Assembly: GCA_041489005.1 (NCBI GenBank)
Contig: JBGPQK010000008.1
Location: forward strand, 6,602-70,601
Reading direction: 5' to 3'
Length of the DNA: 64,000 nucleotides
DNA from: Anaerolineae bacterium
Lineage (GTDB): Bacteria > Chloroflexota > Anaerolineae > Anaerolineales > Villigracilaceae
The notes beneath the pieces are model-generated. The model saw nothing but the letters and a program-made list of their open reading frames with translations, did not search any database and was not told the DNA's origin. The position numbers and the translations under genes were made by a program. The number at the start of each line of letters is the position of its first letter. Position 1 is the first letter of the stretch. Below are positions 42,702-59,908 of the stretch, piece after piece.

Positions 42702-42982
42702 TTTCGATGGAGCCCGGTCCTAAATTTATTAGTGTGCTTTGACACCGGAAGTTCAGTTCGAATAAATTGCATGGCTCCACATCCGGGAAAATTTTATTTT
42801 CCTAATACCATCTGACTGCACCTTTCACTGATTTCACTTTGCTGAATCGATTTCCAAGACATTCCCATGTTCACGCAGCCGCGCCCACTGGCAAAGCGAT
42901 CGAACATTAACAATTGACTGAACGTCCCTCCCTACGGAGACCAGCGATCTGAAAAAAAAGATGCCTTTTCAGGCGCCTTCGA

Positions 42983-43171
42983 GTTGCGGGGGCTGGACTC
43001 GAACCAGCGACCTCCAGGTTATGAGCACCAATCTCGCGTCGCACATTACAGACCGACGGGGTGCTGTTTTTGCCTGACCCGGTGGTTTGAGGTAGATAGG
43101 GGCCCGGCGAGCTAAAGTTGGATGATCAGCGAGCGGATTTTAGCACGAACGCAACCAGAACGCAAGTTCTG
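42983..43171 (-). repeat. repeat copy 1: conserved ~145-nt arm plus tRNA-Met(CAU) 3' half
   Basis: The minus strand ends with ...GCTCATAACCTGGAGGTCGCTGGTTCGAGTCCAGCCCCCGCAA. No matching 5' acceptor strand or D-arm is present. By hand alignment the arm differs from copy 3 at about 17 of ~147 positions. Confidence 0.8.
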
Positions 43172-43525
43172 AAACTATTGTTCAAAGCTCACAGCTCGGA
43201 CTTTATTATTTCCTTGAAATCCGTTTGGATGAAGTTATAAACCCTACGGGGTAATACCACAATTCCTACGGGTGTGATCGGATGGAATATTTGCACCATA
43301 CAGCATGGCTCTTGGTTTCCTTAGACAACAAGAACCAAGTTACCATGACCAAGCCTTTCCGTAAACTACTGAGAATAGTAAAAACGATGGTAAACTTAAA
43401 AAGGTTCAGTCAAGATTCTCACCCCGTTTGGGCGAAAATGATGGCAAAATTATTTCGACATGGAATTTCGGGATTATTTTATATTGACGTAGAATTCAGG
43501 TATCAGTTTTTTCATCGAGGGAGCA

Positions 43526-45550
43526 ATGGCTAAATATCTCAGATCAGTTCTCCTGCTCATGATCTTCCTGTTACCTGCCTGTGCCCAGACCAGCATACCT
43601 GCGCCGACCATCATCCCGCCTACAGGTTCAACAATCTCTATAACCACTCCCACAACTATCCCTTCTGTCACTCCTCAGCCATCTGTAACCTTGCAGCAGG
43701 ATGGTAGCCTCTATGCCGGTCCCGGCAACGCGGATTTTGAACAGGTTGCCTCTTTAAAAGCCGGTACGGATGTACTGCCTATAGCGACTTTTGGGGATTT
43801 TGTCCAGGTCGCGACCATCGTGGATGGTCAGGAACTGCATGGATATGTCTGGAAAAATATCCTGGCGGCATTGCCCGCCGGCCTGCCGGCATTGGCCAGC
43901 GCATCTGTTCCCTGGCAGCCACTTTACCTGCCGGATTGTTCGCCGGGGAACTATACCGCAGCCACCGACGCCGTTGTGTTCTCTAATGACAGCAGTGCTT
44001 ATTTGGATAACGAAAGCAGCGCCATTCCTTTGGCAGAACCGCTCAGTATTGCCATCGGTAGCGCTGCTGCCACCCCAGGCGATGGCGCACCTGCGATCAA
44101 GATCCTTGGCAGCCCTGAGCAGCCCAGCGGAGATTGGTGGAAAGGCATCACCCGCCTGGATCTTGGATACATGAATGGCAATTACTATATCGGCATCCGG
44201 GATGGCACCAAGGCCGATTATGTCGTTTATCGGGAACTGCCGATCAAGGCCGATCAAACCATCCAACTTGCCTTTGACCAAATCGAGGGAAAGAGTTTCC
44301 GCATTCTGGACGGGAACAGGCAGAAAATTCTATCTATGGATCTGACCACCACACAAGGCGTGAATCTGCCAAACGGCTTGTTTCCTAAAGGCGTCGTCTA
44401 CATCGGTACCACGCTCCCAGCGCATAGCACCTTCAATGTGACAGGATTGCGGATCGGTGTTCTAGCCTCCGGTCAATGGATGCAGGCACAGAACGGTTAT
44501 TACACCCAACCTGGGCTGGCAGAGCTGGCAGTATCCCACCATGTCACCATCGGGACGGAGTTTTCGGTCGGATATACCTCCGACCCGCGTTACTGCCGGA
44601 CCATGCAGCGGGACTTCAACGTGGCTGTTCTGAGCGAATTTTCCTCGCCCGCCATGTGGCTGGGCATCAGTCAATACGATTTCAGCGCCATTGATCAGGC
44701 CGTGGATTACGCCTCCCGCCACGGCTGGCGTATCCGCGCCTCGCACCTGTTATGGGGCAACCCCGATATTCTTCCCGATTGGCTGAAGAACAGTCACTAC
44801 CCTCGCGAGCAGTATATCCAGATCATGGAACAGTACATCAAAGATGTCGTTGGGCGCTACCGCGGTCGCGTCCAGGAGTGGAGCATTGCCAATGAAGCCA
44901 TCAGCCGCTCCTTCTCATCGGGTACGGATTTTTGGAATGACAAGATCGGCCCGGACTACATTTCGCTGGCCTTCATCACTGCCAGGCAGGCTGACCCCGA
45001 GGGCCTGTTGATCTTCAACGATTACAACAACCAGGCCCCCCAGGATGCCCTGCAAGCGAGTATCATCAACAAGATGTATACCACCGTAAGACAGCTCAAG
45101 GCAGGGGGCGTACCCATCGACGTGGTCGGGATGCAAATGCACCTTTTCATGCCCTGGCTCAGCAGTTCCTTGCTGCCTCAGAAAGCAGCTGTGGTTGCCA
45201 CCATGCAAAAGTTTGCCGCCCTGGGTGTGCGGATCTATGTTACCGAGATGGATGCGGATCTGGCCAGACAGCCGGGCAGCCAGGTCGAGAAATGGGCTTT
45301 TGAAGCCGGGGTTTATCGCGATATTATGGAAGCCTGTATCGAGTCGGGTGTTTGCAACAGTTTTGCCACTTGGGGTATCTCGGATGCGACTTCCTGGATT
45401 TCCTGCGCTTCGAATGGTTGCCTGAATGAAAAGAATGCCGACCCACTCATGTTCGATCCTTCCTATGCCCCCAAACCGGCTTACTTTGCCGTACGGGATG
45501 CTCTCCAGACGGATTTTACCGTCACACCTATTACCACCCCGACGAAATGA
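43526..45550 (+). CDS. GH10-family (endo-beta-1,4-xylanase-like) lipoprotein with an N-terminal SH3-like domain and an unknown middle domain
   Basis: Lipobox LLPAC. An SH3b-like segment (LYAGPG...GYVWKNIL). The C-terminal ~330 aa carry GH10-like motifs: WSIANEA (acid/base region) and YVTEMD (nucleophile region). Confidence 0.72.
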   Translation: MAKYLRSVLLLMIFLLPACAQTSIPAPTIIPPTGSTISITTPTTIPSVTPQPSVTLQQDGSLYAGPGNADFEQVASLKAGTDVLPIATFGDFVQVATIVDGQELHGYVWKNILAALPAGLPALASASVPWQPLYLPDCSPGNYTAATDAVVFSNDSSAYLDNESSAIPLAEPLSIAIGSAAATPGDGAPAIKILGSPEQPSGDWWKGITRLDLGYMNGNYYIGIRDGTKADYVVYRELPIKADQTIQLAFDQIEGKSFRILDGNRQKILSMDLTTTQGVNLPNGLFPKGVVYIGTTLPAHSTFNVTGLRIGVLASGQWMQAQNGYYTQPGLAELAVSHHVTIGTEFSVGYTSDPRYCRTMQRDFNVAVLSEFSSPAMWLGISQYDFSAIDQAVDYASRHGWRIRASHLLWGNPDILPDWLKNSHYPREQYIQIMEQYIKDVVGRYRGRVQEWSIANEAISRSFSSGTDFWNDKIGPDYISLAFITARQADPEGLLIFNDYNNQAPQDALQASIINKMYTTVRQLKAGGVPIDVVGMQMHLFMPWLSSSLLPQKAAVVATMQKFAALGVRIYVTEMDADLARQPGSQVEKWAFEAGVYRDIMEACIESGVCNSFATWGISDATSWISCASNGCLNEKNADPLMFDPSYAPKPAYFAVRDALQTDFTVTPITTPTK

Positions 45551-45678
45551 TCGGCACCCTCACTCTTCACCTGCATCTCCCTGGCTGCGGCTCATTTAAA
45601 AGAAAAACGCGGACGGCATAAGCGCGCTGCTGGCGCGCCTGCACCGCCAGTTCAATGTATCTGCAGCAGTTACAGTCT
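45547..45678 (+). pseudogene. DUF503 (YlxP-like) gene relic, frameshifted and truncated
   Basis: The ATG overlaps the GH10 stop (ATGA). It reads MIGTLTLHLHLPGCGS..K.KR, and after two frame changes LLARLHRQFNVSAAV, matching the DUF503 N-terminal pattern. The rest of the gene is missing. Confidence 0.5.
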
Positions 45679-46053
45679 GCCTATCTTTGTTAGCCCTTTA
45701 ACCTATTAAAGAACTTCTCTTCTACCGGAGAGTATATACTCGTTATTAAGCTGTCAAAAGGCAACAAGCCTGGCGATTTCTGCTAGATATGTTCTTCCTC
45801 CCGAATGCGGGGGCCTGTGCCAACGGTGGTAATTTTAAAACTATCAAAGCCCCAACCATGTGTGTCACCCGGGCGATCAATGTCACAATCAACTCCTAGC
45901 CAGGCACCGTAAACCCACTGATCAAACCCAAACCTGTCTCCCACCTCGATCGACCCGGCGGACTAGTCATACTCAAAATACCAAATAAAGGAAGTGCTCC
46001 AGCATCAGTCCGGTGTATAATTTTTGATCAGCTAAGCTTGAGTCGGAGGTTCG

Positions 46054-46857
46054 ATGTCTACATTCAGAGAAAAATACGGACCTTGGGCACTTGTCACCGG
46101 TGCTGCCATGGGACTGGGAGCAGAATTTGCCCGGCAATTGGCCAAAAAGGGATTAAACCTGGTTCTTGTAGATATTAAAGCCGAACCCTTGTCAGACATA
46201 TCCAAGACATACTCTCGCGAGTTCAACGTTGGCGTCCGACCAATCGTTTTGGACCTGGCTCACGGGATTTTCTCATCCCAGTTGATCCCTGCTACCAGCG
46301 ACCTCGAAGTTGGATTACTGGTGAACAATGCAGGGATCTCAGCCATCGGTCATTTTCTGGACGTGCCTCTTGAAAAACATTTATCCATCCTTGCCATCAA
46401 CGCCCGGGCGCCTCTGATGCTGGCCCATCACTTTGGCGGGCTTATGCGTGAGAGAAAACGCGGCGGGATCATTTTTGTCTCCTCCGTGTCAGCCATTGTA
46501 GGGACAAGTTATGTCAGCGAGTATTCAGCCACCAAGGCGCATGACCTGGCATTGGGTGAAGCTCTTTGGGAGGAATTACGATCCTTCAATGTGGATGTGC
46601 TAACAACGATCGTCGGAGCGACTGATACTCCTGGCTGGCGGGCAGAAAATGCCAGGCCAGATGCGAAAACCTGGCCGCCTGTCATGAAAGCCGAGGATAC
46701 AATCCGCGAAACACTCGCTGCACTGGGGAAGACATCTAGCTTTGTGCCTGGCGCACAAAACCGTTTCGCCACTTTCCTTACATCACGCCTGCTCTCGCGT
46801 AAGACCGCGATCGAGACGACAGGAAAAGAAATGGATAAGAGGTATGGGAAGAAGTGA
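46054..46857 (+). CDS. short-chain dehydrogenase/reductase (SDR)
   Basis: TGAAMGLGAEFA (TGxxxGxG), NNAG and the YSATKA catalytic Tyr/Lys. Confidence 0.85.
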   Translation: MSTFREKYGPWALVTGAAMGLGAEFARQLAKKGLNLVLVDIKAEPLSDISKTYSREFNVGVRPIVLDLAHGIFSSQLIPATSDLEVGLLVNNAGISAIGHFLDVPLEKHLSILAINARAPLMLAHHFGGLMRERKRGGIIFVSSVSAIVGTSYVSEYSATKAHDLALGEALWEELRSFNVDVLTTIVGATDTPGWRAENARPDAKTWPPVMKAEDTIRETLAALGKTSSFVPGAQNRFATFLTSRLLSRKTAIETTGKEMDKRYGKK

Positions 46858-47242
46858 GATGATCGCGGAGAGTATGACGATCGGGTGCTGTACAGTTCTC
46901 TCGTCGGGCGAGGCCATGAGACCTCGCCCTGACCTTGACCGGAGGTCTCTTCCAGCGTGTTGACCAGATCAACGGGCCTTTTTCTTTCCCGGCTCCTCCT
47001 GCAGATCAAGAGCATCCGTGCGTCAAGCGCTTGATATGAACAGGGCATAGCGGAAGGAGAATTCCTCATGTTCGATGCTCCCACATCCGTAGGCAGGCCA
47101 TATCACCTTGCCCCTACATTTACCTATTCAAAGATAGCAGCGGGTTTTGGACCAGAAGAGGGATTCTGTTTTACTTATTTGGTAAAAATGGATCATGTGA
47201 TATTCATCTGAATAGTCCCCAATGTTTGTGCCAGTTATCATG

Positions 47243-47297
47243 TGAGGCTGGAACCAACGACCCAGAGGTTATGAGCTCCAATCTAATTTCGCACATT
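47243..47297 (-). repeat. truncated, degenerate copy of the tRNA-half repeat
   Basis: The minus strand reads GAATGTGCGAAATTAGATTGGAGCTCATAACCTCTGGGTCGTTGGTTCCAGCCTCAC. It aligns to the junction of the arm and the tRNA 3' half in the full copies. Confidence 0.6.
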
Positions 47298-47305
47298 CTT
47301 AAAGG

Positions 47306-47331
47306 AAAAAGTGCCATTTCAGGCACTTTTT
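47306..47331. terminator. symmetric hairpin associated with the repeat unit
   Basis: AAAAAGTGCC-ATTTCA-GGCACTTTTT. Homologous hairpins precede copy 3 (51736-51759) and, in degenerate form, copy 1 (about 42953-42978). Confidence 0.55.
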
Positions 47332-47352
47332 CACTCTCTTTGGGACTAATTT

Positions 47353-47542
47353 AGTTGCGGGGGCTGGACTCGAACCAGCGACCTCCAGGTTATGAGCATC
47401 AATTTTGCGTCGCACATTACAGACCGACGGGTTGCTGATTTTGCCTAACCCGGCGGTTTGAGATAAATTGGGGCCCGGCGAGCTAAAGTTGGGTAATCAG
47501 CGACCGGATTCTAGCACGGAAACAATCAGAACGCAAGTTCTG
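47353..47542 (-). repeat. repeat copy 2: conserved arm plus tRNA-Met(CAU) 3' half
   Basis: Same tRNA 3' half as copy 1. Its arm differs from copy 3 at only about 4 positions by hand alignment. Confidence 0.8.
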
Positions 47543-47748
47543 TTCTCTTTCGTAAAGACTAAAGTGAATTGCAATATTCTTCAACTGCTTTAGAGGATAT
47601 ATACCATACCCGCCCATTCTTGATCGCTTCGAGCCGGCCCCTGTAAGCGCAAGAAGACTCAGGTATCCGGAGTGTATGGTGTTCCCTTCACCGCACCAGA
47701 GAGAGGAATCTACATTGAATCCATCTTGGGTTTTTCGGCTTGAGGAAT

Positions 47749-48227
47749 TCAGGCCTCCACATACATCGTCAGGTTGCGCTCGACTGCCCGTCTAACGAAA
47801 TTGACTAATCGCTCAAACTGTCCCCCGTCCGCTAACGCAAGTACGGTTTAGTATTGACGCCGGTTGACGTGGAATATAGCGGTTGGCGGGTACCCGGCGC
47901 GCATCAAAATCAGGTTTATCACATGGCGCGCCGTCCGTCCATTGCCCTCTACAAAAGGATGGATGGAAACCAGACGGAAGTGCGCCAACGCTGCCAATCC
48001 AACAGGATGTGTGGATATTTCTGATTTCTTGAGCCAACCTCCCCACTCATCCATCTTTCGCGCAACTTCCCACGACTCGGACCATAGATACTGGACCAGG
48101 AGATTAGCACCTGGGTTTTCCGGAATTGTCCTGCCTCGTCATTGTCAATGTTGGTCAGTACAAGTTTGTGGATTTGACGAACATGGAACGGCGTAAATGC
48201 CTCCATCCCCGATGCTAGACTTTCCAC
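47749..48227 (-). pseudogene. Fic-domain protein pseudogene
   Basis: The N-terminal part (FHVRQIHKLVL...GQFRKTQV) is in one frame. The Fic motif HPFVEGNGRTARHV is in another frame. An in-frame TAA follows NRRQY, and a recognisable C-terminus (TVLALADGGQFERLVNFV) comes after it. Confidence 0.7.
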
Positions 48228-48301
48228 CTATTCAAGCGCATCCTTATGATTGATGCAGAATCGCTAAGTTGGAAGAGATAGGTTCAGACCTTGAGTTCGC
48301 A

Positions 48302-48751
48302 TCAACCTGCTTCTACTTCGTCAAGCACAATTACGTTTAATTCGATTACCCGTTTAAGGGTATCGTCGTTTGTTAGAAAAGCATCACAGTCAGCTGCAAG
48401 TGCTGCGGCTGCTTGAAACGCATCAGATAGAGTGAGGTTGTAACGAGCGCGCAGATCCGCAGCTTGACTGGCAATCTGGTCCTCAATAACCACAAAGGTC
48501 ATGTTGTCACTTCTGCTCAACATTCGTATAAAGGATTGAGCAACATCCGGTTTCCCCAACCGGAACGGCAGTACCAGACATTCTGAAAGCGTCACCGGAG
48601 AAGCCACGCCCGCAAGAGTCCCATCATCCAGATGTTCAAATACTACCTGCACTTTTTGCAGGTAGTTCCGATTCTTCTCAACGAAATATATTACTGGTGC
48701 TGTATCGAGAAAAATACGATGAACGTTCTTTAGTTTAGAGGAAATCTTCAT
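48302..48751 (-). CDS. vapC: PIN-domain toxin (VapC family)
   Basis: Acidic quartet contexts FLDTAP, LSEC, LSDAFQ and LTND. Overlaps the upstream antitoxin gene by 4 nt. Confidence 0.85.
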   Translation of the reverse strand: MKISSKLKNVHRIFLDTAPVIYFVEKNRNYLQKVQVVFEHLDDGTLAGVASPVTLSECLVLPFRLGKPDVAQSFIRMLSRSDNMTFVVIEDQIASQAADLRARYNLTLSDAFQAAAALAADCDAFLTNDDTLKRVIELNVIVLDEVEAG

Positions 48752-49005
48752 AAATCATGATTCAACTGACGATCACGTTGAGCAGTGTCTTCACGCCGAG
48801 TACGTGAAATATAGGCCTGGGCATCTTCACCGTAAGCAGGGTAGGGTAGCATCCCACGCAAGTGTCGCCATTTAAGAGGTTTACCGTTTTTAGCAGGTAT
48901 CTCTTGTTTTACACCCTCAATCAGGCGCGACGCCAAGGTCAAACGTTCTGCCGGAGTAAGTCGGGCAGCTTGTTTGAGGACATTTTCGATGGATTGAGCA
49001 GCCAT
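48748..49005 (-). CDS. putative VapB-type antitoxin
   Basis: 85-aa ORF translationally coupled to vapC. The call rests on position and size. Confidence 0.6.
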   Translation of the reverse strand: MAAQSIENVLKQAARLTPAERLTLASRLIEGVKQEIPAKNGKPLKWRHLRGMLPYPAYGEDAQAYISRTRREDTAQRDRQLNHDL

Positions 49006-49094
49006 ATGTTAATCCTTTCGTTTTACTCCAATCAACCAATAACATAACCATTATACACTGTTGCGCTTCAGTATTGACAATAATGGATTGTGGT

Positions 49095-51023
49095 TCAACC
49101 GACTCCTACAATATCATACCCCAAGGCTTTATATCCTTTTCTTCGTTTCTCAAACATCCCTTTTAGGACAGGTACTTGTCCATCTACATAATCATAGATA
49201 AGCACATCAGTCTTCAATTCATATAAACGGTGCAATCGGCCAGCATATTGAGCCAATGTTCCACGCCAAGAAATCGGTAGAGCAAGAAAAAGCGTATCCA
49301 AACGCGCGTCATCAAAACCTTCTCCTAAATAGCGTCCCGTGGCTAGAATCAATCGCTCTTCGTTACTCGAGATCCGTCTTAATTGCTCTTCGATGATCTG
49401 TCGTTGTTTTTTACCCATACCGCCCGACATAACAATAACATTTTTAATTTGTGATTTGAGTTTATCTGCCAATAGCGCCAGATGTTCGCGGCGCTCAGTT
49501 AATAGTACAGGCGAACGTCCGCTATGTACAGCAGTGATCACGTCCTCAATAATCAACGCATTCCGTTCCTCGTTACTCGTCAGAGCGCTGTACAAATCCT
49601 GGATTGCCATAGGTGAATAATTTTCCTCCACGGGAGGCGCGCAAAATTCAGTTCGCCTGATAATGACCTTATGACTGAATGGTCTAGCAGCAGCTTGCTT
49701 TCGATCATCTATCCGATATCTTATTGGCCCACACTGCATAAAGACGATGGGTTGGTGACCATCCTTGCGAGTCACTGTTGCTGAAAGCCCCAAAACATAT
49801 TTGGCTTTGGCTTGTCTCGCCACAAGTTCGAAACTGCTGGCGGAAATATGATGGCACTCATCAAAGATGATCTGACCGTATTCTCCAACAAAATCGCTGA
49901 TCTTCCCCTTCTTCCCGAGGCTTTGGATCATAGCAACATCAACCAGTTTAGTAGGCTTGGTCCGTCCACCACCAATTTGACCGATCTCTTTCTTATCCAG
50001 GTTTAAAAACGCACCTAAGCTGGCAATCCATTGATCGAGAAGCTGTCTGCGATGAACAACCACAAGAGTATTAACTTTACGCTGGGCAATCAAATAACAT
50101 GCGACTACTGTTTTTCCGAAGGCCGTTGATGCCGATAACACGCCGGTATCGAACTGCAGTAATCTATCCGCTACAGATTGTTGTTCGGATCGTAATGAAC
50201 CATTGAAATTTACATCGATGGAGTTGCCTTCAAAACGCTCATCTTTTATCACAACCCTGATTTTTAGCGAATTTAACAGCCCCACCACATCCTCAAGACA
50301 CCCTCTTGGTATTCCAAGGTGATTCGGGAATTCTTCGCAGCAACTGATAATGCGAGGTTTGTTATATGTTGAAAGACGCATTGCTTGCGCCTTGTAAAAT
50401 TCCGGATTCTGAAAAGCAGCCAGTCTGATTAAACGGTTACGGAACGAGGGAGATAACCCCTCCTTCGGAATATACACTTGATTGTTTAAGATCAAGGTAA
50501 TTTCTTCAGGAAATGGTCCCAAGATCGGCGCTTCTGTTGAAGTCCTCGATGGTAACATCTTCCAGGGCTCCGCTTCGTTTTCATCCACTAAAGGCATTCG
50601 AATCCCGGTCAATTCACCTTGTTGTTTTTCAGCTTCTTCGACCACCTGTATGATTCTCGTTTTATCTATTCTTTGAACAGTTGAAAAAAACGCCCATTGA
50701 TCTGGGTATGGCACCAAAGTTTGATCGACAAGAACACTGTTTCCGTGATCACGAGGTTTCTTTTGCAATGGTAAAGCGATCAGGTTACCAAATCCTCCCC
50801 TGGGCAATGTATCCTGACTTGGAAAGAGTCGATCATAAGAATCCAACCCCAATTCAGGTCTGCGACGCATGGTTTCGGTAAGTAAAAAAGTACCCACCTT
50901 CCGAGCCAGAACTGCCGATACAGGTTCCGAGAAGTAAATCCATACGTGACCGCCGTTTCCGGACCTCGAGCGTTCTAACACTGCTGGGATATTGCGCAAA
51001 TCGCAGCTCTCAAGAAAAGCCAA
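49095..51023 (-). CDS. SF2 (DEAD/DEAH, ResIII-type) helicase; distal part of an AEP primase-polymerase/helicase fusion
   Basis: AEP motif II RSRSGNGGHVWIYF. Helicase motifs TAFGKTVVA (I), FDECHH (II), LSAT (III) and QYAGRLHR (VI). The annotated TTG start is in frame with ORF 51036-51554 across a single TAG. Confidence 0.8.
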   Translation of the reverse strand: MAFLESCDLRNIPAVLERSRSGNGGHVWIYFSEPVSAVLARKVGTFLLTETMRRRPELGLDSYDRLFPSQDTLPRGGFGNLIALPLQKKPRDHGNSVLVDQTLVPYPDQWAFFSTVQRIDKTRIIQVVEEAEKQQGELTGIRMPLVDENEAEPWKMLPSRTSTEAPILGPFPEEITLILNNQVYIPKEGLSPSFRNRLIRLAAFQNPEFYKAQAMRLSTYNKPRIISCCEEFPNHLGIPRGCLEDVVGLLNSLKIRVVIKDERFEGNSIDVNFNGSLRSEQQSVADRLLQFDTGVLSASTAFGKTVVACYLIAQRKVNTLVVVHRRQLLDQWIASLGAFLNLDKKEIGQIGGGRTKPTKLVDVAMIQSLGKKGKISDFVGEYGQIIFDECHHISASSFELVARQAKAKYVLGLSATVTRKDGHQPIVFMQCGPIRYRIDDRKQAAARPFSHKVIIRRTEFCAPPVEENYSPMAIQDLYSALTSNEERNALIIEDVITAVHSGRSPVLLTERREHLALLADKLKSQIKNVIVMSGGMGKKQRQIIEEQLRRISSNEERLILATGRYLGEGFDDARLDTLFLALPISWRGTLAQYAGRLHRLYELKTDVLIYDYVDGQVPVLKGMFEKRRKGYKALGYDIVGVG

Positions 51024-51035
51024 AGCATCATCAGA

Positions 51036-51554
51036 CTAGGTGGATTTATCAAAATCAACAGCTAAAAACCAGCAGTTTTCATCAATACACATTGGGTAAA
51101 CACCAATTGTAAAGTCCCGACCAGACCGATCGGTCGGATCAGCTCCTAAAAGATGAGAACGGATTACATCATTGCTAAGTGGAATAAAATCTCGGGCTGA
51201 ACATTCAGCGCAAGTAATCTTTGGCTTGAGACAGACGCCATTGACCCATTCATTTCGGCAAACCGGCTGGTATCCAGATTTTCCCGTCCGAACATTCTCA
51301 AACCTGCGCGGAAATGCATCTTCTCGCCCTCTGAACAAAGCACGGAATAGAGCTATTTTTTCTTCCTGATCGGATTGATTATTGACTGCTACATTCGGCA
51401 ATTGGAGCGCAAGTTGAGCCGGCTGATCAAGCAGAGCCTTTTGTTGCCGAAGCTGCTTTATACGCGCTATCAATTCTGCGCGATGGCTGTCTAAAGCAAG
51501 AAGCTCATTATCGGCTTCGGCTAACAGTCGATCTATTTCAATATACGACATCAT
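51036..51554 (-). CDS. N-terminal part of the AEP primase-polymerase/helicase fusion (coiled coil, Cys cluster, AEP motif I)
   Basis: FRGREDAFPRRFEN...GYQPVCRNEW...C..C and the DxD motif FLAVDFDK. It ends at a TAG that is in frame with 49095-51023. Confidence 0.7.
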   Translation of the reverse strand: MMSYIEIDRLLAEADNELLALDSHRAELIARIKQLRQQKALLDQPAQLALQLPNVAVNNQSDQEEKIALFRALFRGREDAFPRRFENVRTGKSGYQPVCRNEWVNGVCLKPKITCAECSARDFIPLSNDVIRSHLLGADPTDRSGRDFTIGVYPMCIDENCWFLAVDFDKST

Positions 51555-51735
51555 ATCTTTATTCTACTGTGAATCTCTAGAGTCTCAGAAGAAGATAATG
51601 TTATATTGGAGGCATCTCACTGCATGGCTATCTAATCAGATTCTTGATTTCTCCACTTTGTTGTAGCAGGGGAAGGATCCGAAGCAATGAGCCGTTAGTT
51701 ACGAGCCCCTAACCTATTCGTATATTTTTAAAGCT

Positions 51736-51759
51736 AAAAAGTGCCTCAAAAGGCACTTT
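51736..51759. terminator. hairpin associated with repeat copy 3
   Basis: AAAGTGCC-TCAAAA-GGCACTTT, homologous to 47306-47331. Confidence 0.5.
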
Positions 51760-51768
51760 CCATTTGGA

Positions 51769-51951
51769 TGGCTTAGGCTTCAACCTTAGACCTCCGGATT
51801 ATGAGCATCAATTTTGCGTCGCACGTTACAGACCGACGGGTTGCTGATTTTGCCTGACCCGGCGGTTTGAGATAAATTGGGGCCCGGCGAGCTAAAGTTG
51901 GGTAATCAGCGACCGGATTCTAGCACGGAAGCAACCAGAACGCAAGTTCTG
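51769..51951 (-). repeat. repeat copy 3: conserved arm plus a degenerate tRNA-like 3' half
   Basis: The arm is nearly identical to copy 2. The tRNA-like part keeps GCTCATAATCCGGAGGTC, but the T-arm and acceptor are diverged (CTAAGGTTGAAGCCTAAGCC). Confidence 0.75.
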
Positions 51952-51991
51952 TGATATACTTACAGCGTAATTACATTCAAGGAGTAAAACA

Positions 51992-52240
51992 ATGTTACGA
52001 AAAGTTTTCAGAACAGGCAACAGCACGGTAGTTTCTTTACCGAAGGATGTAATTGATCCGCTGGGCGTTAGAGATGGTTCGGACGTTTCCGTGGAACTGG
52101 ACCGCGAACACCGTCAAATAATTATCCGACCAGTGGATAAGCCAATCGCCGCAGCCGGCGTGGATGAGGATTTCGCCCGCCAGGTGAGCGAGTTCATTGC
52201 CGAATACCGCCCCGCCCTGAATTCTCTGGCGAAGAAATGA
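51992..52240 (+). CDS. AbrB/MazE/SpoVT-fold antitoxin
   Basis: MLRKVFRTGNSTVVSLPKDV is the swapped-hairpin DNA-binding motif. AAGGAG RBS. Overlaps the doc start. Confidence 0.8.
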   Translation: MLRKVFRTGNSTVVSLPKDVIDPLGVRDGSDVSVELDREHRQIIIRPVDKPIAAAGVDEDFARQVSEFIAEYRPALNSLAKK

Positions 52241-52629
52241 AATATCTGACTTCCGAACAGGTATTATTCATTCATGCACGCCTGATCGCTGAAACGGGAG
52301 GCAGCCACGGGGTGCGTGACCTGGTCCGGCTGGAATCGGCGGTAGCCCGCCCGCAGGCCGCGTTTGGCGGCAAAGAATTGTATCCGGATGTGTTCCTGAA
52401 GGCGGCCGCATTGCTGGATTCGCTGATCAACAACCACCCTTTTGTGGACGGCAACAAACGGACCGGGATCACTGTCGCAGCGCTTTTTTTGCAGGCCAAC
52501 GGTCGACAATTGACAGCCAATCCCGCCGAACTCGAAGAATTTACCCTGCAGGCAGCCACTTCTCATCCCGACCTTCCCATTCTTGCCGATTGGCTCCATC
52601 GGCAGAGTCAGAATACGGGGAAAAAATAA
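52237..52629 (+). CDS. doc: death-on-curing (Doc) family toxin, Fic fold
   Basis: HPFVDGNKRTG Doc-type Fic motif, 130 aa. Confidence 0.85.
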   Translation: MKYLTSEQVLFIHARLIAETGGSHGVRDLVRLESAVARPQAAFGGKELYPDVFLKAAALLDSLINNHPFVDGNKRTGITVAALFLQANGRQLTANPAELEEFTLQAATSHPDLPILADWLHRQSQNTGKK

Positions 52630-52737
52630 TCCAAAGATAGGATGGCCCTCACCACACGCGACCCTGCTTTTCAATTCTGGTTAACAAACAGGAATCAAGA
52701 ATAAGACCTCAATATCGGTTTCGGGTAAGATAAGCAC

Positions 52738-55329
52738 CTATAGTATCTTTTGGATCAAGCTGAAATAATCAATTTCTACCGGTCTGAGGTTTTCAGATAA
52801 CAACGTACCCCGAGTCTCCACCTGAAGCAGTGTTTTACTCCGGCACTTGAATCCGTCAAACTGATTCGGGTTGACCAGGACTACGCGAGACTCGCCTTGA
52901 GGTAGGATTAACTCAACTGCCCCAGCACCGGTGATGGTCTCGATCAGCCCGGTCATGTGGTTGGTAGTAAGTATCAGTTCGGGAGCAGACAAGCTGGTAA
53001 CATCCTGGTTTTGTTCTTTAATCATGGTGGCGATTCTCCACTTGGTCACCGTATCCATTTTTGCACGCTTTAACAGGCGCATCACGAGTGTTTCTACTGA
53101 GGAAGCGGGTGCGAGGATGAAGCGATTTATCGTGTGGATCTCAACCGTCAGGTCCTGATCGACCCCCATTACAAGAGGTCCGAAGACCACAGTGCGGCTG
53201 ACTTTTTCATAGACTATCGGTAGGTCCAGAATCTTTCCATTGACAGCCGCGCTGTGACCGTCTGGTTGTTCTACACCCCGGATGAGGATACGATAAGTTC
53301 GTTGTTGAGGAATGCATTTTATATCACCGGCAGCAGGTGAAATTCGAACCGAAATTGAATTATCTGTCCAGCTCGAAATGAATTCCGTGCAACAACCGCC
53401 TTTCTGCCGGTACTCCAACGAAACACCGTCATCCTCATACAACTTGAAAGAACCACTATTGCCAGGGAATACAATGAGATCGATAGCATCCGGATTGGCA
53501 ACACCGTTACGAGTGGTTTCAGCTTGTAAAGGCAGGATGGCACCCGCGCGAGCAAAAAGGGGAATTTCGGATAGTCCATAATATTGGATCTTCCACTGCG
53601 GGCCGCTGAAACGCTCACCGTTAAAGAAATCAAACCATTCGCCCGGAGGAAACCAGATAATCTGGCGGCTCTGATTTAGATCCGGGTCGACGGGCGTTGT
53701 GACTGGTGCGGCCATCAGTTCACTGCCCAACAGATACTGGCCACCAGCCAGGAAAGCGGATTCCTCACCCGGCCAATCGTAGTAAAGTGGGGTAATTAGA
53801 GGCAATCCTTCTTGCTCATTTCGTCTCGCCATTGTGTAAAGGTATGGTATTAGAGCGTGCCTGAACTGCATTGCCTGCCGGGTCAATCTCAGAATTTCAG
53901 CATCAAAAGCCCATGGCTGATGGTCGATGAAGTTATCTTTGGTACAGTGCAGCCGGAAAATTGGGCTGATAACTCCGAACTGTACCCATCGGGTGTAAAG
54001 TTCGCTGTCTTCCATCCCGCGCATGTGACCGCCAATATCATGGCTCCACCAGCCGTAGGCCGCATTGGCTGCGGTAGCGGTGAAATAGGGTTGATAAGTC
54101 AGCGCTTTCCAGGTTATGATCGTATCACCGGAAAAACCGATCGGGTAACGGTGGTTACCGGGGCCGCCCCAGCGGGAGAAGATCGCCGGGCGTTTTTTTC
54201 CACCGCGCACCAGGTCATAAAAATGGAGATGGTTCAACCACCAGAGAGGATCCAGACTAGGGATGGAGGTGCTCTTGCCCTGTTGCCAGTCGATCCACCA
54301 GAAATCTACCCCCTCCATTTCAAGCGGGTGGAGCATTTGGTCAAAAAAAACCTGGGCGAACCGCTGGTCAGCAATATCAAAGGGAATGATTTCTTTCTTT
54401 TCCGGGTCCAAACCCAGGGCAAGAGCCGCCTGCGGGTATTTCTCTTCATGCGGGTGAATGCCCTCAGCCGGGTGCAAGTTGAGCGAGGTAATCAATCCTT
54501 GATTGTGTAACCAATTCAGCAATCCGGGAGGATCAGGGAAGAGGGATCGATTCCAGCTATATCCTGTCCAGCCGCTGCAGGTGTTGCCAGTTTCGGTGAT
54601 ATGCCAATCCATGTCAATGATAAATACTGAAAGGGGGATCTGTTCCAGGTGAAAACGTTTTACCAGGAGCTCAATTTCTTCCTGTGAATATTCCCAGTAA
54701 CGGGACCACCAATTTCCGAGAAAGGCGCGCGGCAGCAGGGAAGGTGTTCCAGCAACCCGCTGATAATCCTGCAGGGCTGCTTTGTAATCCTGTCCATAAA
54801 TCAACAGATAAAGGTCTCGGTAACCGGTTTGAACAGGGCGCGGCTCCAACCAGCCGCCGGAATTGAATATCAGGCTGAGGCTATCATCCAGCTGTACCCA
54901 ACCTGCACGGGAGATCAATCCCAGCTGAAGTTGCACAGGTCCGTTGGTTTCGTCCAGCGTGCGGGCTGTGCCAGGCAGAAGCCCCGGGTTTGGATCATCA
55001 ATATGAATGATTGCGCCGGTCTTTTTTATGACCATCTTCAGGGAGTCGTGGGTGAGCCCTTCGGGCGTATCTTTGAATGTAAACTGAAAAGTATCCGTTT
55101 CGATGGACAAGGTTTGTTTTTTTGGATGGAGGTCTGCTTTCGGGAGTGGTTGGCGCCGGAACCAAAATACCTGCGAAGGCCGGTCTTCGAACTGACCCAT
55201 GGGACTGGACTCGATGCGGATCATACGCGAGGTGAGCAGGGTGAAGCGCACCGTCGGGAATTGAAATACCGTTTTAGGGTCAGCTTGAGCGGAGGAAATA
55301 GAGGGAGTGAAGAATTCCAAAGCAGGCAT
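52738..55329 (-). CDS. glycoside hydrolase family 31
   Basis: GVDFWWIDWQQG, GFSGDTIITW and WVQFGVISPIFRLH. Start set at the ATG preceded by AAGGAGAG (MPALEFF). Confidence 0.8.
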   Translation of the reverse strand: MPALEFFTPSISSAQADPKTVFQFPTVRFTLLTSRMIRIESSPMGQFEDRPSQVFWFRRQPLPKADLHPKKQTLSIETDTFQFTFKDTPEGLTHDSLKMVIKKTGAIIHIDDPNPGLLPGTARTLDETNGPVQLQLGLISRAGWVQLDDSLSLIFNSGGWLEPRPVQTGYRDLYLLIYGQDYKAALQDYQRVAGTPSLLPRAFLGNWWSRYWEYSQEEIELLVKRFHLEQIPLSVFIIDMDWHITETGNTCSGWTGYSWNRSLFPDPPGLLNWLHNQGLITSLNLHPAEGIHPHEEKYPQAALALGLDPEKKEIIPFDIADQRFAQVFFDQMLHPLEMEGVDFWWIDWQQGKSTSIPSLDPLWWLNHLHFYDLVRGGKKRPAIFSRWGGPGNHRYPIGFSGDTIITWKALTYQPYFTATAANAAYGWWSHDIGGHMRGMEDSELYTRWVQFGVISPIFRLHCTKDNFIDHQPWAFDAEILRLTRQAMQFRHALIPYLYTMARRNEQEGLPLITPLYYDWPGEESAFLAGGQYLLGSELMAAPVTTPVDPDLNQSRQIIWFPPGEWFDFFNGERFSGPQWKIQYYGLSEIPLFARAGAILPLQAETTRNGVANPDAIDLIVFPGNSGSFKLYEDDGVSLEYRQKGGCCTEFISSWTDNSISVRISPAAGDIKCIPQQRTYRILIRGVEQPDGHSAAVNGKILDLPIVYEKVSRTVVFGPLVMGVDQDLTVEIHTINRFILAPASSVETLVMRLLKRAKMDTVTKWRIATMIKEQNQDVTSLSAPELILTTNHMTGLIETITGAGAVELILPQGESRVVLVNPNQFDGFKCRSKTLLQVETRGTLLSENLRPVEIDYFSLIQKIL

Positions 55330-55386
55330 GATTCTCTCCTTGAGAGGGTATTGACAATTCCAAAAATAATCGTATAATGATATACA

Positions 55387-55407
55387 TAGTTCGTTCAATA
55401 AACAAAG
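55387..55407. promoter_or_regulatory. candidate operator motif, copy A (divergent GH31/ROK promoter region)
   Basis: TAGTTCGTTCAATAAACAAAG. The same 21-mer with one mismatch recurs at 56640-56660. Confidence 0.45.
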
Positions 55408-55417
55408 AAATTATATC

Positions 55418-56617
55418 ATGAATCCAATTCTGCGCGGCAACCGCGCTCTCATCCGGAGCATTAACCGCTCCATCCTTCTCAATGCCATCAAGACACAGGG
55501 GCTGGTCTCGCGTGCCGCCCTTGTACATATAACCGGTCTCAGCCCCGCTACTGTCACTGCCATAACAGGTCGGCTTATCGAGGAAGGTCTGGTGTTTGAA
55601 AAAGCCACCGGCGATTCCACTGGCGGGCGGCCGCCGATCATGCTGGCACTCAACCCGCGCGGCGGCTTTGTCATTGGAATCAAATTGATGGAAGGGCATG
55701 CGGTTGGTGCTCTGACAGATCTGAATGCAACTATTTTAGCGAAAGATTCCATCGAGCTTGCTGACAAGCAGTACGAAACGAGTGTGGAAACCCTGATAGC
55801 CCTCGTTAACCGTTTGATTCACAGCAGCGGTATCCCCACAAAACAACTGATGGGATTGGGAATTGGCTTGGCAGGGGTGGTTGATTTTGCACACGGAATC
55901 GTGAAACAGAATCCTTTTTTTGGCTGGCGGAATATTCTCTTACGCGATGTGTTGGAAACACGAATGCATGTTCCTGTTTATATTGATAACGACGTCAATA
56001 CGCTTACGCTGAGCGAAAAATGGCTCAACCGCGGTCAGCCTGAAGATAATTTTATCGTAATTACGATTGGGCGTGGGATCGGTATGGGCATCGTGATTAA
56101 TGGGGAGGTTTACCGCGGCAAAGGAGGTGGAGCAGGCGAATTAGGGCATGTGATGGTAGACCCCAATGGACCCCTTTGCGATTGCGGCAAGCGGGGTTGC
56201 CTGGAAAGCCTGGTGAGTGATCGCGCTCTTGTTGCTGAAGCGCGGCGTAATGTGAGTCCGGATATTGCTGATCTCGATGACCTCATCCAACTCGCCTCTG
56301 AAGGGGACGCAGGGGCTGCCCAGGTTCTGGCACATGCCGGCACGCTGCTCGGGAGACAAATCGCCAACATAGTGAATGTACTAGATCCGAAATTAATAAT
56401 TATTAGTGGCGAGGGCACTCGCATGGGCGATGTGTTCTTCTCCGCTGTTCGTACCGCTTTTCACGATTGCGTCATGACTGGCCTGGCAGAAGATACCGAA
56501 ATTCGAGTTAATTCCTGGGGGGACGATATCTGGGCGCTTGGAGCAGCCAGCTTGGTGATTGCGGAAATTTTTAAATCACCGATTCAAAAGGAGGAGAGAA
56601 CTGAAAATACCAAATGA
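55418..56617 (+). CDS. ROK-family transcriptional repressor (NagC/XylR type)
   Basis: N-terminal wHTH (RSILLNAIKTQGLVSRAALVHITGLSPATV), GIGLAGVVD and the zinc motif GELGH...CDCGKRGCLE. Confidence 0.85.
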   Translation: MNPILRGNRALIRSINRSILLNAIKTQGLVSRAALVHITGLSPATVTAITGRLIEEGLVFEKATGDSTGGRPPIMLALNPRGGFVIGIKLMEGHAVGALTDLNATILAKDSIELADKQYETSVETLIALVNRLIHSSGIPTKQLMGLGIGLAGVVDFAHGIVKQNPFFGWRNILLRDVLETRMHVPVYIDNDVNTLTLSEKWLNRGQPEDNFIVITIGRGIGMGIVINGEVYRGKGGGAGELGHVMVDPNGPLCDCGKRGCLESLVSDRALVAEARRNVSPDIADLDDLIQLASEGDAGAAQVLAHAGTLLGRQIANIVNVLDPKLIIISGEGTRMGDVFFSAVRTAFHDCVMTGLAEDTEIRVNSWGDDIWALGAASLVIAEIFKSPIQKEERTENTK

Positions 56618-56639
56618 GTAGTTTTTTTTTAAGCCAAGT

Positions 56640-56660
56640 TAGTTCGTTCAATATACAAAG
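56640..56660. promoter_or_regulatory. candidate operator motif, copy B (upstream of the ABC binding-protein gene)
   Basis: TAGTTCGTTCAATATACAAAG. A related half, TTGAATAAACCAAAG, lies at 56680-56694. Confidence 0.45.
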
Positions 56661-56723
56661 TAACTAATCACTTGTATAATTGAATAAACCAAAGTCAATC
56701 CAATCAATCAGAAGGAGTAGAAA

Positions 56724-58052: not shown

Positions 58053-58119
58053 CAATCCTCAATCGTTCGAAGGGGATGAGAATTTATTAATTCTCATCCC
58101 CTTGTATTAGAGGTAAATC

Positions 58120-59043: not shown

Positions 59044-59046
59044 CCA

Positions 59047-59901: not shown

Positions 59902-59908
59902 ACTGGCC

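Follow-up and report, generated by a model that had tools for sequence, protein, structure and literature searches.

The repeated arm at positions 47398-47542 of the analysed stretch of DNA (64,000 nucleotides, hereafter the window) is probably the integrase-distal (P) arm of the att site of small integrative islands that target the initiator tRNA-Met of Anaerolineae, with an outward promoter included. Rather than a new structured-RNA gene, the arm is an ordinary kind of feature, which carries a promoter and probable recombinase boxes. The first-pass annotation had left it open whether the arm is an attP arm or encodes a small structured RNA. We favour the former, given that the edge of the arm behaves as a recombination joint, that a tyrosine integrase adjoins the arm in related loci, that homologues of this integrase lie behind intact tRNA-fMet genes, and that the arm contains boxes copying tRNA sequence. 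The features are compiled in Table 1.

Table 1. Positions of the repeat units, their sub-features and the intervening cargo in the window.
Feature	Positions	Strand	Description
Copy 1 unit	42983-43171	minus	tRNA half 42983-43026, same as copy 2; arm 43027-43171, 18 differences from copy 2
Copy 1 terminator	~42952-42980		
Cargo, units 1-2	43172-47244	none	GH10 glycoside hydrolase, short-chain dehydrogenase; no integrase
Decayed tRNA-half relic	47245-47297	minus	with ~20 nt of arm start; directly past terminator H2; older
Intrinsic-terminator hairpin	47305-47332	minus	just downstream of tRNA half; A-run and T-run, hence bidirectional
Copy 2 unit	47354-47542	minus	tRNA half and arm
Copy 2 tRNA half (core segment O)	47354-47397	minus	anticodon loop CUCAUAA through acceptor end
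Copy 2 arm	47398-47542	minus	probable integrase-distal (P) arm of integrative island, joined to displaced tRNA half
Arm-proximal 22 nt	47398-47419	minus	includes palindrome TGCGTCGCA (47406-47414)
Box 2	47449-47456	minus	CCGCCGGG followed by UCAGGC; resembles CGUCAGGC of the lineage's own tRNA; second candidate binding site
Box 1	47473-47485	minus	UAGCUCGCCGGGC; copies tRNA-fMet ~21-33 (D-stem 3' strand and anticodon-stem 5' strand); candidate integrase-binding site
Extended -10	47508-47516	minus	TGCTAGAAT; column identity 0.91-0.93
Promoter spacer	47514-47530	minus	constant 17 nt; spacer-core identity 0.72
Hairpin CAGAAC-GCAA-GTTCTG	47527-47542	none	cargo-side edge of arm; overlaps -35; weak terminator-like element on both strands
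-35 hexamer	47531-47536	minus	TTGCGT; inside the terminal hairpin; column identity 0.98 across 21 copies
Cargo, units 2-3	47543-51650	none	Fic fragment, VapBC (PIN), split AEP-TOTE primase-helicase; no integrase
Older relic by copy 3	~51650-51712		
Copy 3 terminator	51736-51759		
Copy 3 unit	51763-51951	minus	decayed tRNA half 51763-51806 (15 of 45 positions differ, T-stem broken); arm 51807-51951, 4 differences from copy 2

Mosaic repeat units and the displaced tRNA half

A repeat search of the window revealed a 216-nt direct repeat in three copies (42956-43171, 47327-47542, and 51736-51951), which far exceeds expectation and cannot be accounted for by chance. Each copy contains the 3' half of an initiator-type tRNA-Met on the minus strand, joined to a 145-nt arm. 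Counted in register, the arms of copies 2 and 3 differ at 4 of 145 positions, those of copies 1 and 3 at 16 and those of copies 1 and 2 at 18. Over the 45 nt of the tRNA part, copies 1 and 2 are identical, whereas copy 3 deviates from either of them at 15 positions. These counts agree with the earlier estimates of about 4 arm differences between copies 2 and 3, about 17 between copies 1 and 3, and strongly diverged tRNA-like parts in copies 2 and 3. The accompanying claim of better conservation in the arm than in the tRNA part holds for copies 2 and 3 but is reversed for copies 1 and 2, and to conclude that constraint acts on the arm and not on the tRNA half over-reads one copy pair. The opposite divergence of arm and tRNA half shows that the copies are mosaic and marks the boundary between the two parts as a recombination joint.

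The tRNA half of copy 2 matches the 3' half of the intact tRNA-Met(CAT) gene of locus L038 at 44 of 44 positions. When the unit was compared with phage and plasmid collections using BLAST, query positions 48-98 alone produced matches, to tRNA-Met genes, and the arm matched nothing in these collections. ARAGORN called no tRNA in the window, including with intron, relaxed, and tmRNA settings. Inspection of the sequence revealed no 5' partner for the acceptor strand CCCCGCA within the arm, which precludes a tRNA-like fold; neither a cloverleaf or tRNA-like domain nor a paired acceptor stem was found. Intron-containing, permuted or D-armless tRNAs, a tmRNA and a group I intron were also considered, and nothing of the kind was reported by ARAGORN or Rfam. 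Conservation ends at 47542, with no tRNA 5' half beyond. In the related loci, members of one arm family are joined to tRNA halves that differ by host (the half in L018, for example, equals the tRNA of L043), which places the crossover at the anticodon loop. Some tRNA halves have an insertion in the T-loop.

Traces of further joints accompany the three units. The repeat search additionally picked up a fourth, partial tRNA-like piece at 47248-47297. Relics homologous to the decayed tRNA half at 47245-47297 are present in L016, L034, and L018, and a fourth joint lies about 400 bases beyond the end of the window.

Integrase neighbourhood of related loci

At least 21 distinct copies of the arm were found in Chloroflexota metagenomes and one Chloroflexia MAG, with a mean column identity of about 0.92 across 21 distinct copies; several loci have two copies located 2.5-2.8 kb apart. 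The GH10 protein, used as a probe for related genomes, retrieved no relatives. In L030 and L021, the succession of arm, tRNA half, and terminator is followed after about 90 nt by the start of a XerC/D-like tyrosine integrase of 331 aa with Phage_integrase and SAM-like N-terminal domains. The integrase behind the unit is truncated in L029 and L031, lies at the contig edge in L036, and appears as a stub in L017 and L024. Homologues of the integrase number 80 in Anaerolineae genomes; an intact tRNA-Met(CAT) gene precedes about 40 of them at a distance of about 90 nt, and 26 follow a tRNA 3' half, mostly with a non-tRNA arm from one of several families ahead of it. Homologues were found in Leptolinea sp. 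HRD-7, Flexilinea flocculi, and Longilinea arvoryzae (L074, L085/L087, L089), among others. The closest homologue (87%), located in L038, follows the tRNA whose 3' half equals that of the window. Arm families and integrase-side arms assort freely.

Both ends of an island are seen in L027, where an intact tRNA-fMet gene (1223-1295) stands at one end and the arm with the displaced half (5078-5298) at the other, both on the same strand. Similarly, one end of L029 retains an integrase remnant and the opposite end an arm. These two loci are degenerate, and two-ended elements were seen only in this form; within 10 kb downstream of the integrase homologues, no second tRNA-half repeat was detected in the 66 loci checked. 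What characterizes an att site is found here in three respects. The displaced fragment of the target tRNA is oriented like the intact gene at the island end, as seen in L027 and in the match to L038. A cognate tyrosine integrase stands beside the regenerated target or att site in the related loci, though not within the window. Finally, the boundary between arm and core separates different histories, as is evident from the mosaic copies, the host-specific halves, and the free assortment. In the window itself, tblastn found no integrase or integrase remnant, and an intact tRNA-fMet gene is absent both there and up to the end of the longer contig, which makes activity of the window copies unlikely.

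To account for this arrangement, we propose that a XerC/D-like tyrosine integrase would cross over at the anticodon loop, that the tRNA 3' half and terminator brought by the incoming island would rebuild the tRNA gene, and that the old 3' half of the host would remain at the far island end, beside the arm. Repeated insertion at the rebuilt tRNA would stack islands head to tail, so that internal joints would read arm, old tRNA half, terminator, and next island. The window would then represent a decayed tandem array of islands with three joints, from which the integrases have been lost. In an excised circle or a tandem array, the arm promoter would precede the tRNA half, the terminator, and the integrase gene, and would take the place that the tRNA promoter has in the integrated state. 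Two observations fit this model less well. The even, high conservation over the whole 145 nt exceeds the need of a few binding sites and counts against it, and the recurring relic consisting of a tRNA half and about 20 nt of arm after the terminator would be explained only by secondary deletion.

Same-orientation arrays of the repeat that separate unrelated cargo of 2.5-12 kb, with no integrases in the window, would also be consistent with an intergenic repeat that spreads by itself, or with an integron-like cassette site, either of which would capture genes without integration at tRNA-fMet, as would the finding that short-read assemblies break at the repeat. However, the tRNA-fMet half is retained in all copies and oriented as displaced fragments would be, the units abut integrases that have tRNA-fMet-linked homologues, and the unit has neither terminal inverted repeats nor an attC-like imperfect palindrome. 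Compared with an integron, in which attC is an imperfect palindrome folding into a single-strand hairpin and the cassettes lie beside an IntI gene, the unit is non-palindromic and its recombinase is linked to tRNA-fMet. Furthermore, the exact 23-mer of the arm had no match in 185,579 species genomes, showing that the repeat is not a dispersed high-copy family. We therefore consider a cassette site or self-spreading repeat very improbable.

Boxes, promoter and candidate RNAs of the arm

The two CCCGGCG boxes about 25 nt apart, the palindrome, the 13-nt complement, and the hairpin listed in the first-pass annotation are all present. On the plus strand the boxes read CCCGGCGG (47449-47456) and CCCGGCGA (47474-47481), with a spacing of 25 nt, and the complement is formed by CGGGTTGCTGATT (47428-47440) and AATCAGCGACCGG (47495-47507). 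Box 1 matches TAGCTCGTCGGGC of Anaerolineae tRNA-fMet genes at 12 of 13 positions; box 2 of copy 1 is mutated to CCCGGTGG. Boxes recur in divergent arms, with two of them in L044 (-87 and -62) and an exact copy in L059, as well as in the integrase-side arm. The box motif is enriched, with 11 matches in arms and 7 in integrase-side arms compared to 0.36 and 0.06 in shuffled sequences, and was not found in arm family C at the threshold used. The 8-mer alone is common in the window (19 matches, 7.8 expected), and its weight as a putative signal comes from the family-wide conservation and from the match to the tRNA. Since box 1 belonged to the search pattern, its invariance in the metagenome set is biased. 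As copies of tRNA sequence adjoining the crossover that reappear in divergent arms and on the integrase side, the boxes are consistent with the earlier suggestion of recombinase sites, and they are probably extra sites to which the integrase would bind. The arm-proximal 22 nt survives beside older tRNA-half relics and resembles the sequence that separates the terminator from the integrase.

On the minus strand, the arm contains a predicted promoter with a transcription start near 47501. The case for this promoter rests on the conservation pattern, in which the hexamers are kept and the spacer is variable. The -35 hexamer is preserved in L029_2, L020, and L034_1 although the hairpin is altered there, and in nearly all copies the best promoter match lies on the tRNA-sense strand. 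The distance from the promoter to CTCATAA is 102-113 nt in eight arm types, including unrelated arm families. A generic promoter scan misses the arm promoter because the main-family -35 matches the consensus at 3 of 6 positions. At the sequence level, the arrangement is that of an outward promoter, located at the integrase-distal end, pointing to the att core and aimed at the tRNA half and the integrase. We infer from this layout that the promoter would be active and would contribute to integrase expression. Descent of the arm promoter and leader from the native tRNA-fMet promoter was considered and rejected, as their alignment is not clearly above shuffles (z = 0.3-3.3).

The hairpin of the terminator differs in sequence in other copies, with stem and U-run retained. 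The terminator hairpin carries a copy of AGCTCGTCGGGCT. All integrase-side arm types have a strong U-run hairpin ahead of the integrase gene, and the best promoter-like matches in the integrase-side arm score 7-9 out of 12 and are weak candidates.

The identity of box 1 with tRNA positions ~21-33 also bears on whether the units are decaying tRNA-fMet duplicates, made up of a promoter, an altered 5' half, an 83-nt insertion, and a 3' half, that are now functionless. In line with such an origin, transcription is predicted to start some 33 nt ahead of the end of box 1, a distance equal to the length of a tRNA 5' half, and the start of the arm is weakly similar to the native tRNA leader. However, alignment to the native promoter and leader gave no significant score (z = 0.3-3.3), and the retention of hexamers with a free spacer and 92% identity over many metagenomes point to selection or recent spread. 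Duplication may describe how the arm arose but leaves the linkage to the integrase unexplained, and we judge it very unlikely that the units are nothing but decaying duplicates.

The first-pass annotation had alternatively envisaged a structured RNA on the plus strand, beginning with about 45 nt antisense to tRNA-Met and ending with a GNRA hairpin. Its fold is good (z = -3.5), the loop of the terminal hairpin is GCAA in 19 of 21 copies, and pairing within the 13-nt helix reaches 83.5% on the plus strand. However, the 13-nt helix has no compensatory pairs, 7 of its 13 pairs vary by breaking only, and its most variable position, at which three bases occur, is paired in 5 of 21 copies (including window copies 2 and 3) and never compensated. 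The 9-nt palindrome would leave a loop of 1 nt and so cannot fold. In addition, a terminator is located just upstream with no promoter between it and the tRNA half, and the hairpin overlaps the minus-strand -35, which survives where the hairpin is damaged. An Rfam 15 scan gave no match in the region at gathering score or E<=10, and none in seven other arm loci; an SRP-RNA-like or other known RNA in the arm was without Rfam support. The terminal hairpin is the exception with respect to covariation: pairing is kept in 84-89% of its cells, and compensatory changes from G-C to A-U occur at two pairs (three copies), while 7 of 21 copies have lost the outermost pair. For the other proposed pairings covariation was not found, nor was a match to a known family. 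As the conserved signals, namely promoter hexamers, tRNA sense, and terminator, are all on the minus strand, a plus-strand structured RNA is extremely improbable.

The same signals would allow a functional small RNA of about 200 nt on the minus strand, running from the arm leader through the tRNA-fMet 3' half to the terminator, with possible roles as integrase cofactor, regulator or decoy for toxins acting on tRNA-fMet. This is consistent with the conserved promoter and terminator that bracket the unit, with a promoter-tRNA distance of 102-113 nt that is constant across unrelated arm families, and with the frequent occurrence of VapC, Doc, and AbiE toxin-antitoxin genes as cargo. The stem between box 1 and CCUGG is 100% paired on this strand (plus strand 82%), its one-sided changes retain G-U pairs, and the fold is somewhat better than that of shuffles (z = -3.1). 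On the other hand, compensatory changes in the main family are confined to the terminal hairpin and the T-arm, with no other arm helix affected, and the box-2 stem and the anticodon-like stem have none. Arm families B and C and the single arms have no common structure, predicted stems break in divergent members, and Rfam matched nothing in the window or the seven other arm loci. Moreover, if the promoter-switch model applies, the integrase mRNA would in any case begin with this transcript as its leader. A functional minus-strand RNA therefore appears unlikely. A common secondary structure across arm families was rejected as well, since MFE and alifold structures differ.

A related idea is that the chimeric transcript of arm leader and tRNA-fMet 3' half is a functional RNA itself and not a mere by-product of the integrase promoter, which we hold to be quite unlikely. 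Such a transcript could sense or titrate something acting on the initiator tRNA or could be an RNA cofactor of the recombinase. The idea goes back to the observation that arm families keep the promoter about 110 nt from the crossover together with mimics of the anticodon-stem region.

Known systems and significance

Restoration of the tRNA and displaced fragments are documented in the Islander database, in which attP sites centred on the anticodon are common (PMC4383910). The islands described here resemble such tRNA-gene islands with anticodon-centred attP (Williams 2002 classification; Islander) in having the integrase beside the regenerated tRNA, a tRNA 3' part supplied by the island, a displaced 3' fragment in direct orientation at the far end, and tandem arrays. 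They differ in their target, the initiator tRNA-Met of Anaerolineae, in an array of at least four units without any integrase, and in a distal arm that is unusually well conserved over 145 nt. Islander lists only 4 tandems of at least three among 3919 islands, with an integrase required for each member (PMC4383910).

State-dependent switching of the integrase promoter is known from ICEKp1, ICEclc, and ICEEc1 (PMC13023037), as exemplified by the Pcirc promoter of ICEclc (PMC5812530), and was demonstrated experimentally for ICEKp1 and ICEclc (PMC13023037, PMC5812530). The layout is alike: the integrase gene lies behind the tRNA gene and a terminator-like stem-loop, and an outward promoter at the opposite end (the 3'-end promoter of ICEKp1, Pcirc of ICEclc) comes to lie upstream of the integrase gene once the element is circular. 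In contrast to these proteobacterial ICEs, the elements here are small Chloroflexota islands known from sequence alone, and they combine several unrelated arm families with a fixed distance of about 110 nt between promoter and crossover, a regularity that does not come from those papers.

Tandem accretion with decayed elements has been described for cis-mobilizable elements (CIMEs) of the ICESt1/ICESt3 type (PMC5704250). Here, too, elements have decayed, integration genes have been lost, att sites are kept, and newcomers stack at the same target; conjugation or mobilisation genes were not seen in the islands of the window. Short repeated boxes with fixed spacing, far from the crossover, are reminiscent of a lambda-type attP with arm-type sites. 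Unlike lambda, the integrase is XerC/D-like; its N-terminal domain is SAM-like, a separate arm-binding domain was not detected in it, and the boxes copy core-side tRNA sequence instead of forming a distinct arm-type motif.

The island model explains the repeats as scars left at a former tRNA-fMet site by a tandem array of islands. It thereby re-labels about 21 kb in the window and its extension as horizontally acquired cargo, comprising a GH10 xylanase-type enzyme, a dehydrogenase, toxin-antitoxin pairs, a TOTE-type primase-helicase, and a 12-kb sugar-use cluster. A TOTE conflict system was also considered as an RNA-linked explanation and dropped, as TOTE systems are defined in the literature through their TPR, OB, TBP, and effector proteins and include no RNA. 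For annotation, fragments of a tRNA half with conserved neighbours suggest that att joints be considered before new RNAs.

Anaerolineae are common in sludge and sediments, and few of their mobile elements have been described. The analysis defines a widespread family of integrases and att sites in this class and, if the arm promoter works as its sequence suggests, would extend the promoter-switch logic of proteobacterial ICEs to a distant phylum.

Mosaic repeat units and their cargo

A repeat search of the window returned a 216-nt direct repeat in three copies, spaced 4371 and 4409 nt apart, and an additional tRNA-like piece. On the plus strand, each unit consists of an A-run and a hairpin, the reverse complement of a 44-45 nt tRNA-Met 3' half that spans the anticodon loop CUCAUAA to the acceptor end CCCCGCAA, and a 145-nt arm. 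ARAGORN, with intron and relaxed settings included, detected no tRNA or tmRNA in the whole window, and Rfam gave no match for this region. In phage and plasmid collections the tRNA part alone matched, to tRNA-Met genes. Searching the window by tblastn with the integrase described below gave no match.

The first-pass annotation had considered the arm better conserved than the tRNA part and proposed that it could be either an attP arm or a structured plus-strand RNA. Its estimates agree with our counts: the arms of copies 2 and 3 (about 4 differences estimated) differ at 4/145 positions, those of copies 1 and 3 (about 17 estimated) at 16/145, and the tRNA parts of copies 2 and 3, described as strongly diverged, at 15/45; all sub-features named in the arm were found in place. 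The better conservation of the arm holds for copies 2 and 3 but is reversed for copies 1 and 2, whose arms differ at 18/145 positions and whose tRNA parts are identical (0/45; copy 1 likewise differs from copy 3 at 15/45). The observation is confirmed, but it shows only half of a mosaic pattern: the arm is common to copies 2 and 3 and their tRNA halves differ, and for copies 1 and 2 the tRNA half is common and the arms differ. Different histories on either side of one boundary are the expected product of a site-specific recombination joint.

Coordinates of repeat units, cargo, relics and related features (window positions unless a related locus or contig, L-number, is named)
Feature	Location	Details
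Repeat copy 1	42956-43171	216 nt
Repeat copy 2	47327-47542	216 nt
Repeat copy 3	51736-51951	216 nt
Fourth unit	L118 15367-15578 (~64413-64624)	same orientation; T-loop insertion
tRNA-like piece	47248-47297	from repeat search
Relic beyond unit 2	47245-47297	older tRNA half + ~20 nt arm start
Relic beyond unit 3	~51650-51712	older tRNA half + ~20 nt arm start
Cargo, units 1-2		GH10 hydrolase, short-chain dehydrogenase
Cargo, units 2-3		Fic fragment, VapBC, split AEP-TOTE primase-helicase
AEP-TOTE primase-helicase	49095-51554, minus strand	two reading frames
Cargo, beyond unit 3		MazE-Doc
MazE-Doc + sugar-use cluster	51952-64000	GH31/ROK/ABC-transporter/GH15/GH31
AEP-TOTE gene beside arm	L011 5610-7989; L020 1-458	two other genomes
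Disrupted AbiEii toxin gene	L011 2214-4920	DDE transposase insertion
Intact tRNA-fMet	L027 1223-1295	with native promoter
Arm + displaced tRNA half	L027 5078-5298	far end of island
Post-tRNA repeat	L027 1296-1470 and 5299-5470	~190 nt
T-loop insertions	L034 1944-2193; L029 8709-8970; L032 and L027 copies	21 nt
Two alleles of one locus	L037 vs L034, ~1900-2100	segment absent from L037
CRISPR-like repeats	L062 ~9680-9912	upstream of integrase

Integrase, tRNA-fMet and island ends

GCA_041490165.1 represents the species of the window. Searching with an 18-mer taken from the arm recovered 22 metagenome loci, nearly all with full units and together comprising 21 distinct sequences; the 18-mer includes box 1 (see below), so that the invariance of this box in the set is biased. 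Several loci (L029, L031, L034) contain two units 2.5-2.8 kb from each other. The hairpin 3' of the tRNA half behaves as a terminator, since its sequence varies among copies while the stem and the U-run on the tRNA-sense strand are always kept. A degenerate junction pattern revealed one copy in a Chloroflexia MAG (L011), where its neighbours are AbiE genes and the TOTE helicase also present in the window. The AEP-TOTE primase, fused to the helicase, adjoins arms in two other genomes (L011, L020), with a different toxin-antitoxin pair in between each time (Fic fragment and VapBC in the window, AbiE in L011, where the arm-adjacent AbiEii toxin gene is disrupted).

In loci L030 and L021, a 331-aa protein with Phage_integrase and SAM-like N-terminal domains is encoded on the tRNA-sense strand, starting about 90 nt past the unit's terminator. 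L036 has the N-terminus of a relative at a contig edge, the copy in L029/L031 is truncated, and that in L017/L024 is reduced to its first codons. As a probe, this integrase retrieved 80 loci, almost all of them in Anaerolineae or other Chloroflexota and often several per genome. About 40 loci have an intact 73-nt tRNA-Met(CAT), with ends typical of initiator tRNA (CGCGGGG/TGCGGGG...CCCCGC(A/T)AC), that stops about 90 nt before the integrase gene; 26 others have the tRNA 3' half alone, from CTCATAA on, in most cases preceded by non-tRNA sequence. The tRNA preceding the closest integrase (L038, 87%) has a 3' half identical to that of window copies 1 and 2. The mosaic joint in the window, together with the integrase and tRNA-fMet ends in related loci, supports the reading as an att arm. 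On a contig binned as Candidatus Nanosynbacter (L062), CRISPR-like direct repeats (GTTCAAAACCCC...CGAGATTAAGAC) reach a tRNA-fMet half upstream of an integrase.

Locus L027 carries, on one strand, a native promoter and intact tRNA-fMet, 3.8 kb of cargo including VapC and HigBA, and then the arm with a displaced tRNA half. The order in L029 is tRNA half, terminator, integrase remnant, two cargo genes, arm, tRNA half, host terminator and host genes. These layouts place the arm at the integrase-distal end of the island; where an integrase follows a unit, that unit is an internal joint of a tandem array (P-O-P'). In the integrase-less island of L027, about 190 nt following the tRNA, containing the terminator and the first ~25 integrase codons ended by a stop, are present at both ends, so the direct repeat reaches far past the tRNA half. 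One arm family is joined to tRNA halves of different hosts (the half in L018 is that of the L043 tRNA), which locates the crossover to the anticodon loop; Islander describes this class as common (PMC4383910). Arm families and integrase-side arm types assort freely between loci. On the longer contig L118, a fourth unit lies about 400 nt beyond the window end, so that arms flank the 12.4-kb MazE-Doc and sugar-use cluster as well, making it probable island cargo. No intact tRNA was found from the window array to the contig end.

Predicted promoter, boxes and RNA folds in the arm

The distal 40 nt of the arm contain a predicted promoter on the minus strand, made up of TTGCGT, a 17-nt spacer and TGCTAGAAT or TGCTAAAAT. 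Mean column identity over the 21 copies is 0.98 for the -35, 0.93 for the extended -10 and 0.72 for the spacer core, and the spacer length is constant. A generic promoter scan missed this promoter because its -35 has only 3/6 consensus matches. Two arm families found beside the same integrase family, B (TTGACG-17-TACTAT) and C (TTGACC-17-TATCAT), and the single arms L044, L059, L080, L105 and L116 have otherwise unrelated sequences; each has a predicted promoter on the same strand, with its -10 ending 102-113 nt from CTCATAA. The att-arm model leaves unexplained both this fixed promoter-to-crossover distance of ~110 nt in unrelated arms and the even conservation across all 145 nt of the arm.

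Box 1, read on the minus strand as UAGCUCGCCGGGC, matches tRNA-fMet positions ~21-33, the segment immediately 5' of the crossover, at 12/13 positions. The lineage's own tRNA contains CGUCAGGC, to which box 2 (CCGCCGGG-UCAGGC) is similar. Among divergent arms, two CTCGCCGGGC boxes lie at -87 and -62 in L044, and L059 has an exact GCTCGTCGGGC. Several integrase-side arms (L038-L117, 95 nt between tRNA and integrase) carry AGCTCGTCGGGCT inside their terminator hairpins, which repeats the D-stem and anticodon-stem segment of the tRNA itself. The box motif gave 11 matches in arms and 7 in integrase-side arms against 0.36 and 0.06 in shuffles; it was not found in arm family C at the threshold used. 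The 8-mer box by itself is common in the window. From these similarities we infer that the boxes may be extra integrase-binding sites mimicking the left half-site of the target.

The alternative, a structured plus-strand RNA, is not supported. The 13-nt long-range helix proposed for it shows no compensatory change in the 21-sequence alignment; 7/13 pairs vary by breaking alone. Its most variable position has three bases opposite an invariant partner and is paired on the plus strand in no more than 5 copies, window copies 2 and 3 among them. The T-arm, used as positive control, showed three compensatory pairs. The 9-nt palindrome cannot fold as RNA since its loop would be 1 nt. The terminal hairpin fares better, being 84-89% paired with two compensatory pairs and, in 19/21 sequences, a GCAA loop, but it overlaps the -35, which persists in copies whose hairpin is disrupted (L029_2, L034_1) or displaced by an insertion (L020); the hairpin may also be a weak terminator for cargo transcripts. 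On the minus strand, alternative stems join box 1 to CCUGG and box 2 to CCCGUCGG; they are 97-100% paired and vary by G-U changes only. Families B, C and the single arms have no common fold, and seven other arm loci gave no Rfam family match. A ~200-nt minus-strand transcript, predicted from the window's units, would be an orphan leader and is no evidence for an RNA gene.

Relics and a candidate promoter switch

Directly beyond the terminators of units 2 and 3 lies an older, more decayed tRNA half with about 20 nt of arm start, and relics with the same truncation point occur in L016, L034 and L018. Their recurrence hints at a preferred deletion joining the arm-proximal 22 nt to a stretch of the integrase-side arm that resembles it (CTGTGATTGGCAAAATT). 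A 21-nt T-loop insertion (about UCCCCAGGGGGGACGUUCCGC) is present in displaced tRNA halves, which lie in at least four different contexts; a tRNA of this kind could hardly work. L037 and L034 are two alleles of one locus, the former without the relic end, terminator and new tRNA half; the junction lies at CCAGCGACCC, which indicates that recombination between tandem tRNA halves is possible.

The islands have a tRNA gene, a terminator and an integrase gene whose own promoter is weak at best, with a predicted promoter pointing outward at the opposite end. When integrated, ICEKp1 relies on the tRNA-Asn promoter, read through an attenuating stem-loop, and the excised circle switches to a promoter at the 3' end of the element (PMC13023037); the same switch is reported for ICEclc (Pcirc) and ICEEc1 (PMC13023037, PMC5812530). 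The layout here is the same, and in ICEKp1 the evidence is experimental. By analogy, the integrase promoter of these islands would switch in this way on excision, a proposal to which we give roughly even chances. In ICEs and IMEs, residents decay to integrase-less elements and newcomers insert, providing a path to accretion (PMC5704250). Contigs of the window's organism from short-read metagenomes break inside the repeat unit (L001, L003, L004, L007-L010), and the MAGs published for this lineage are likely fragmented at such arrays.
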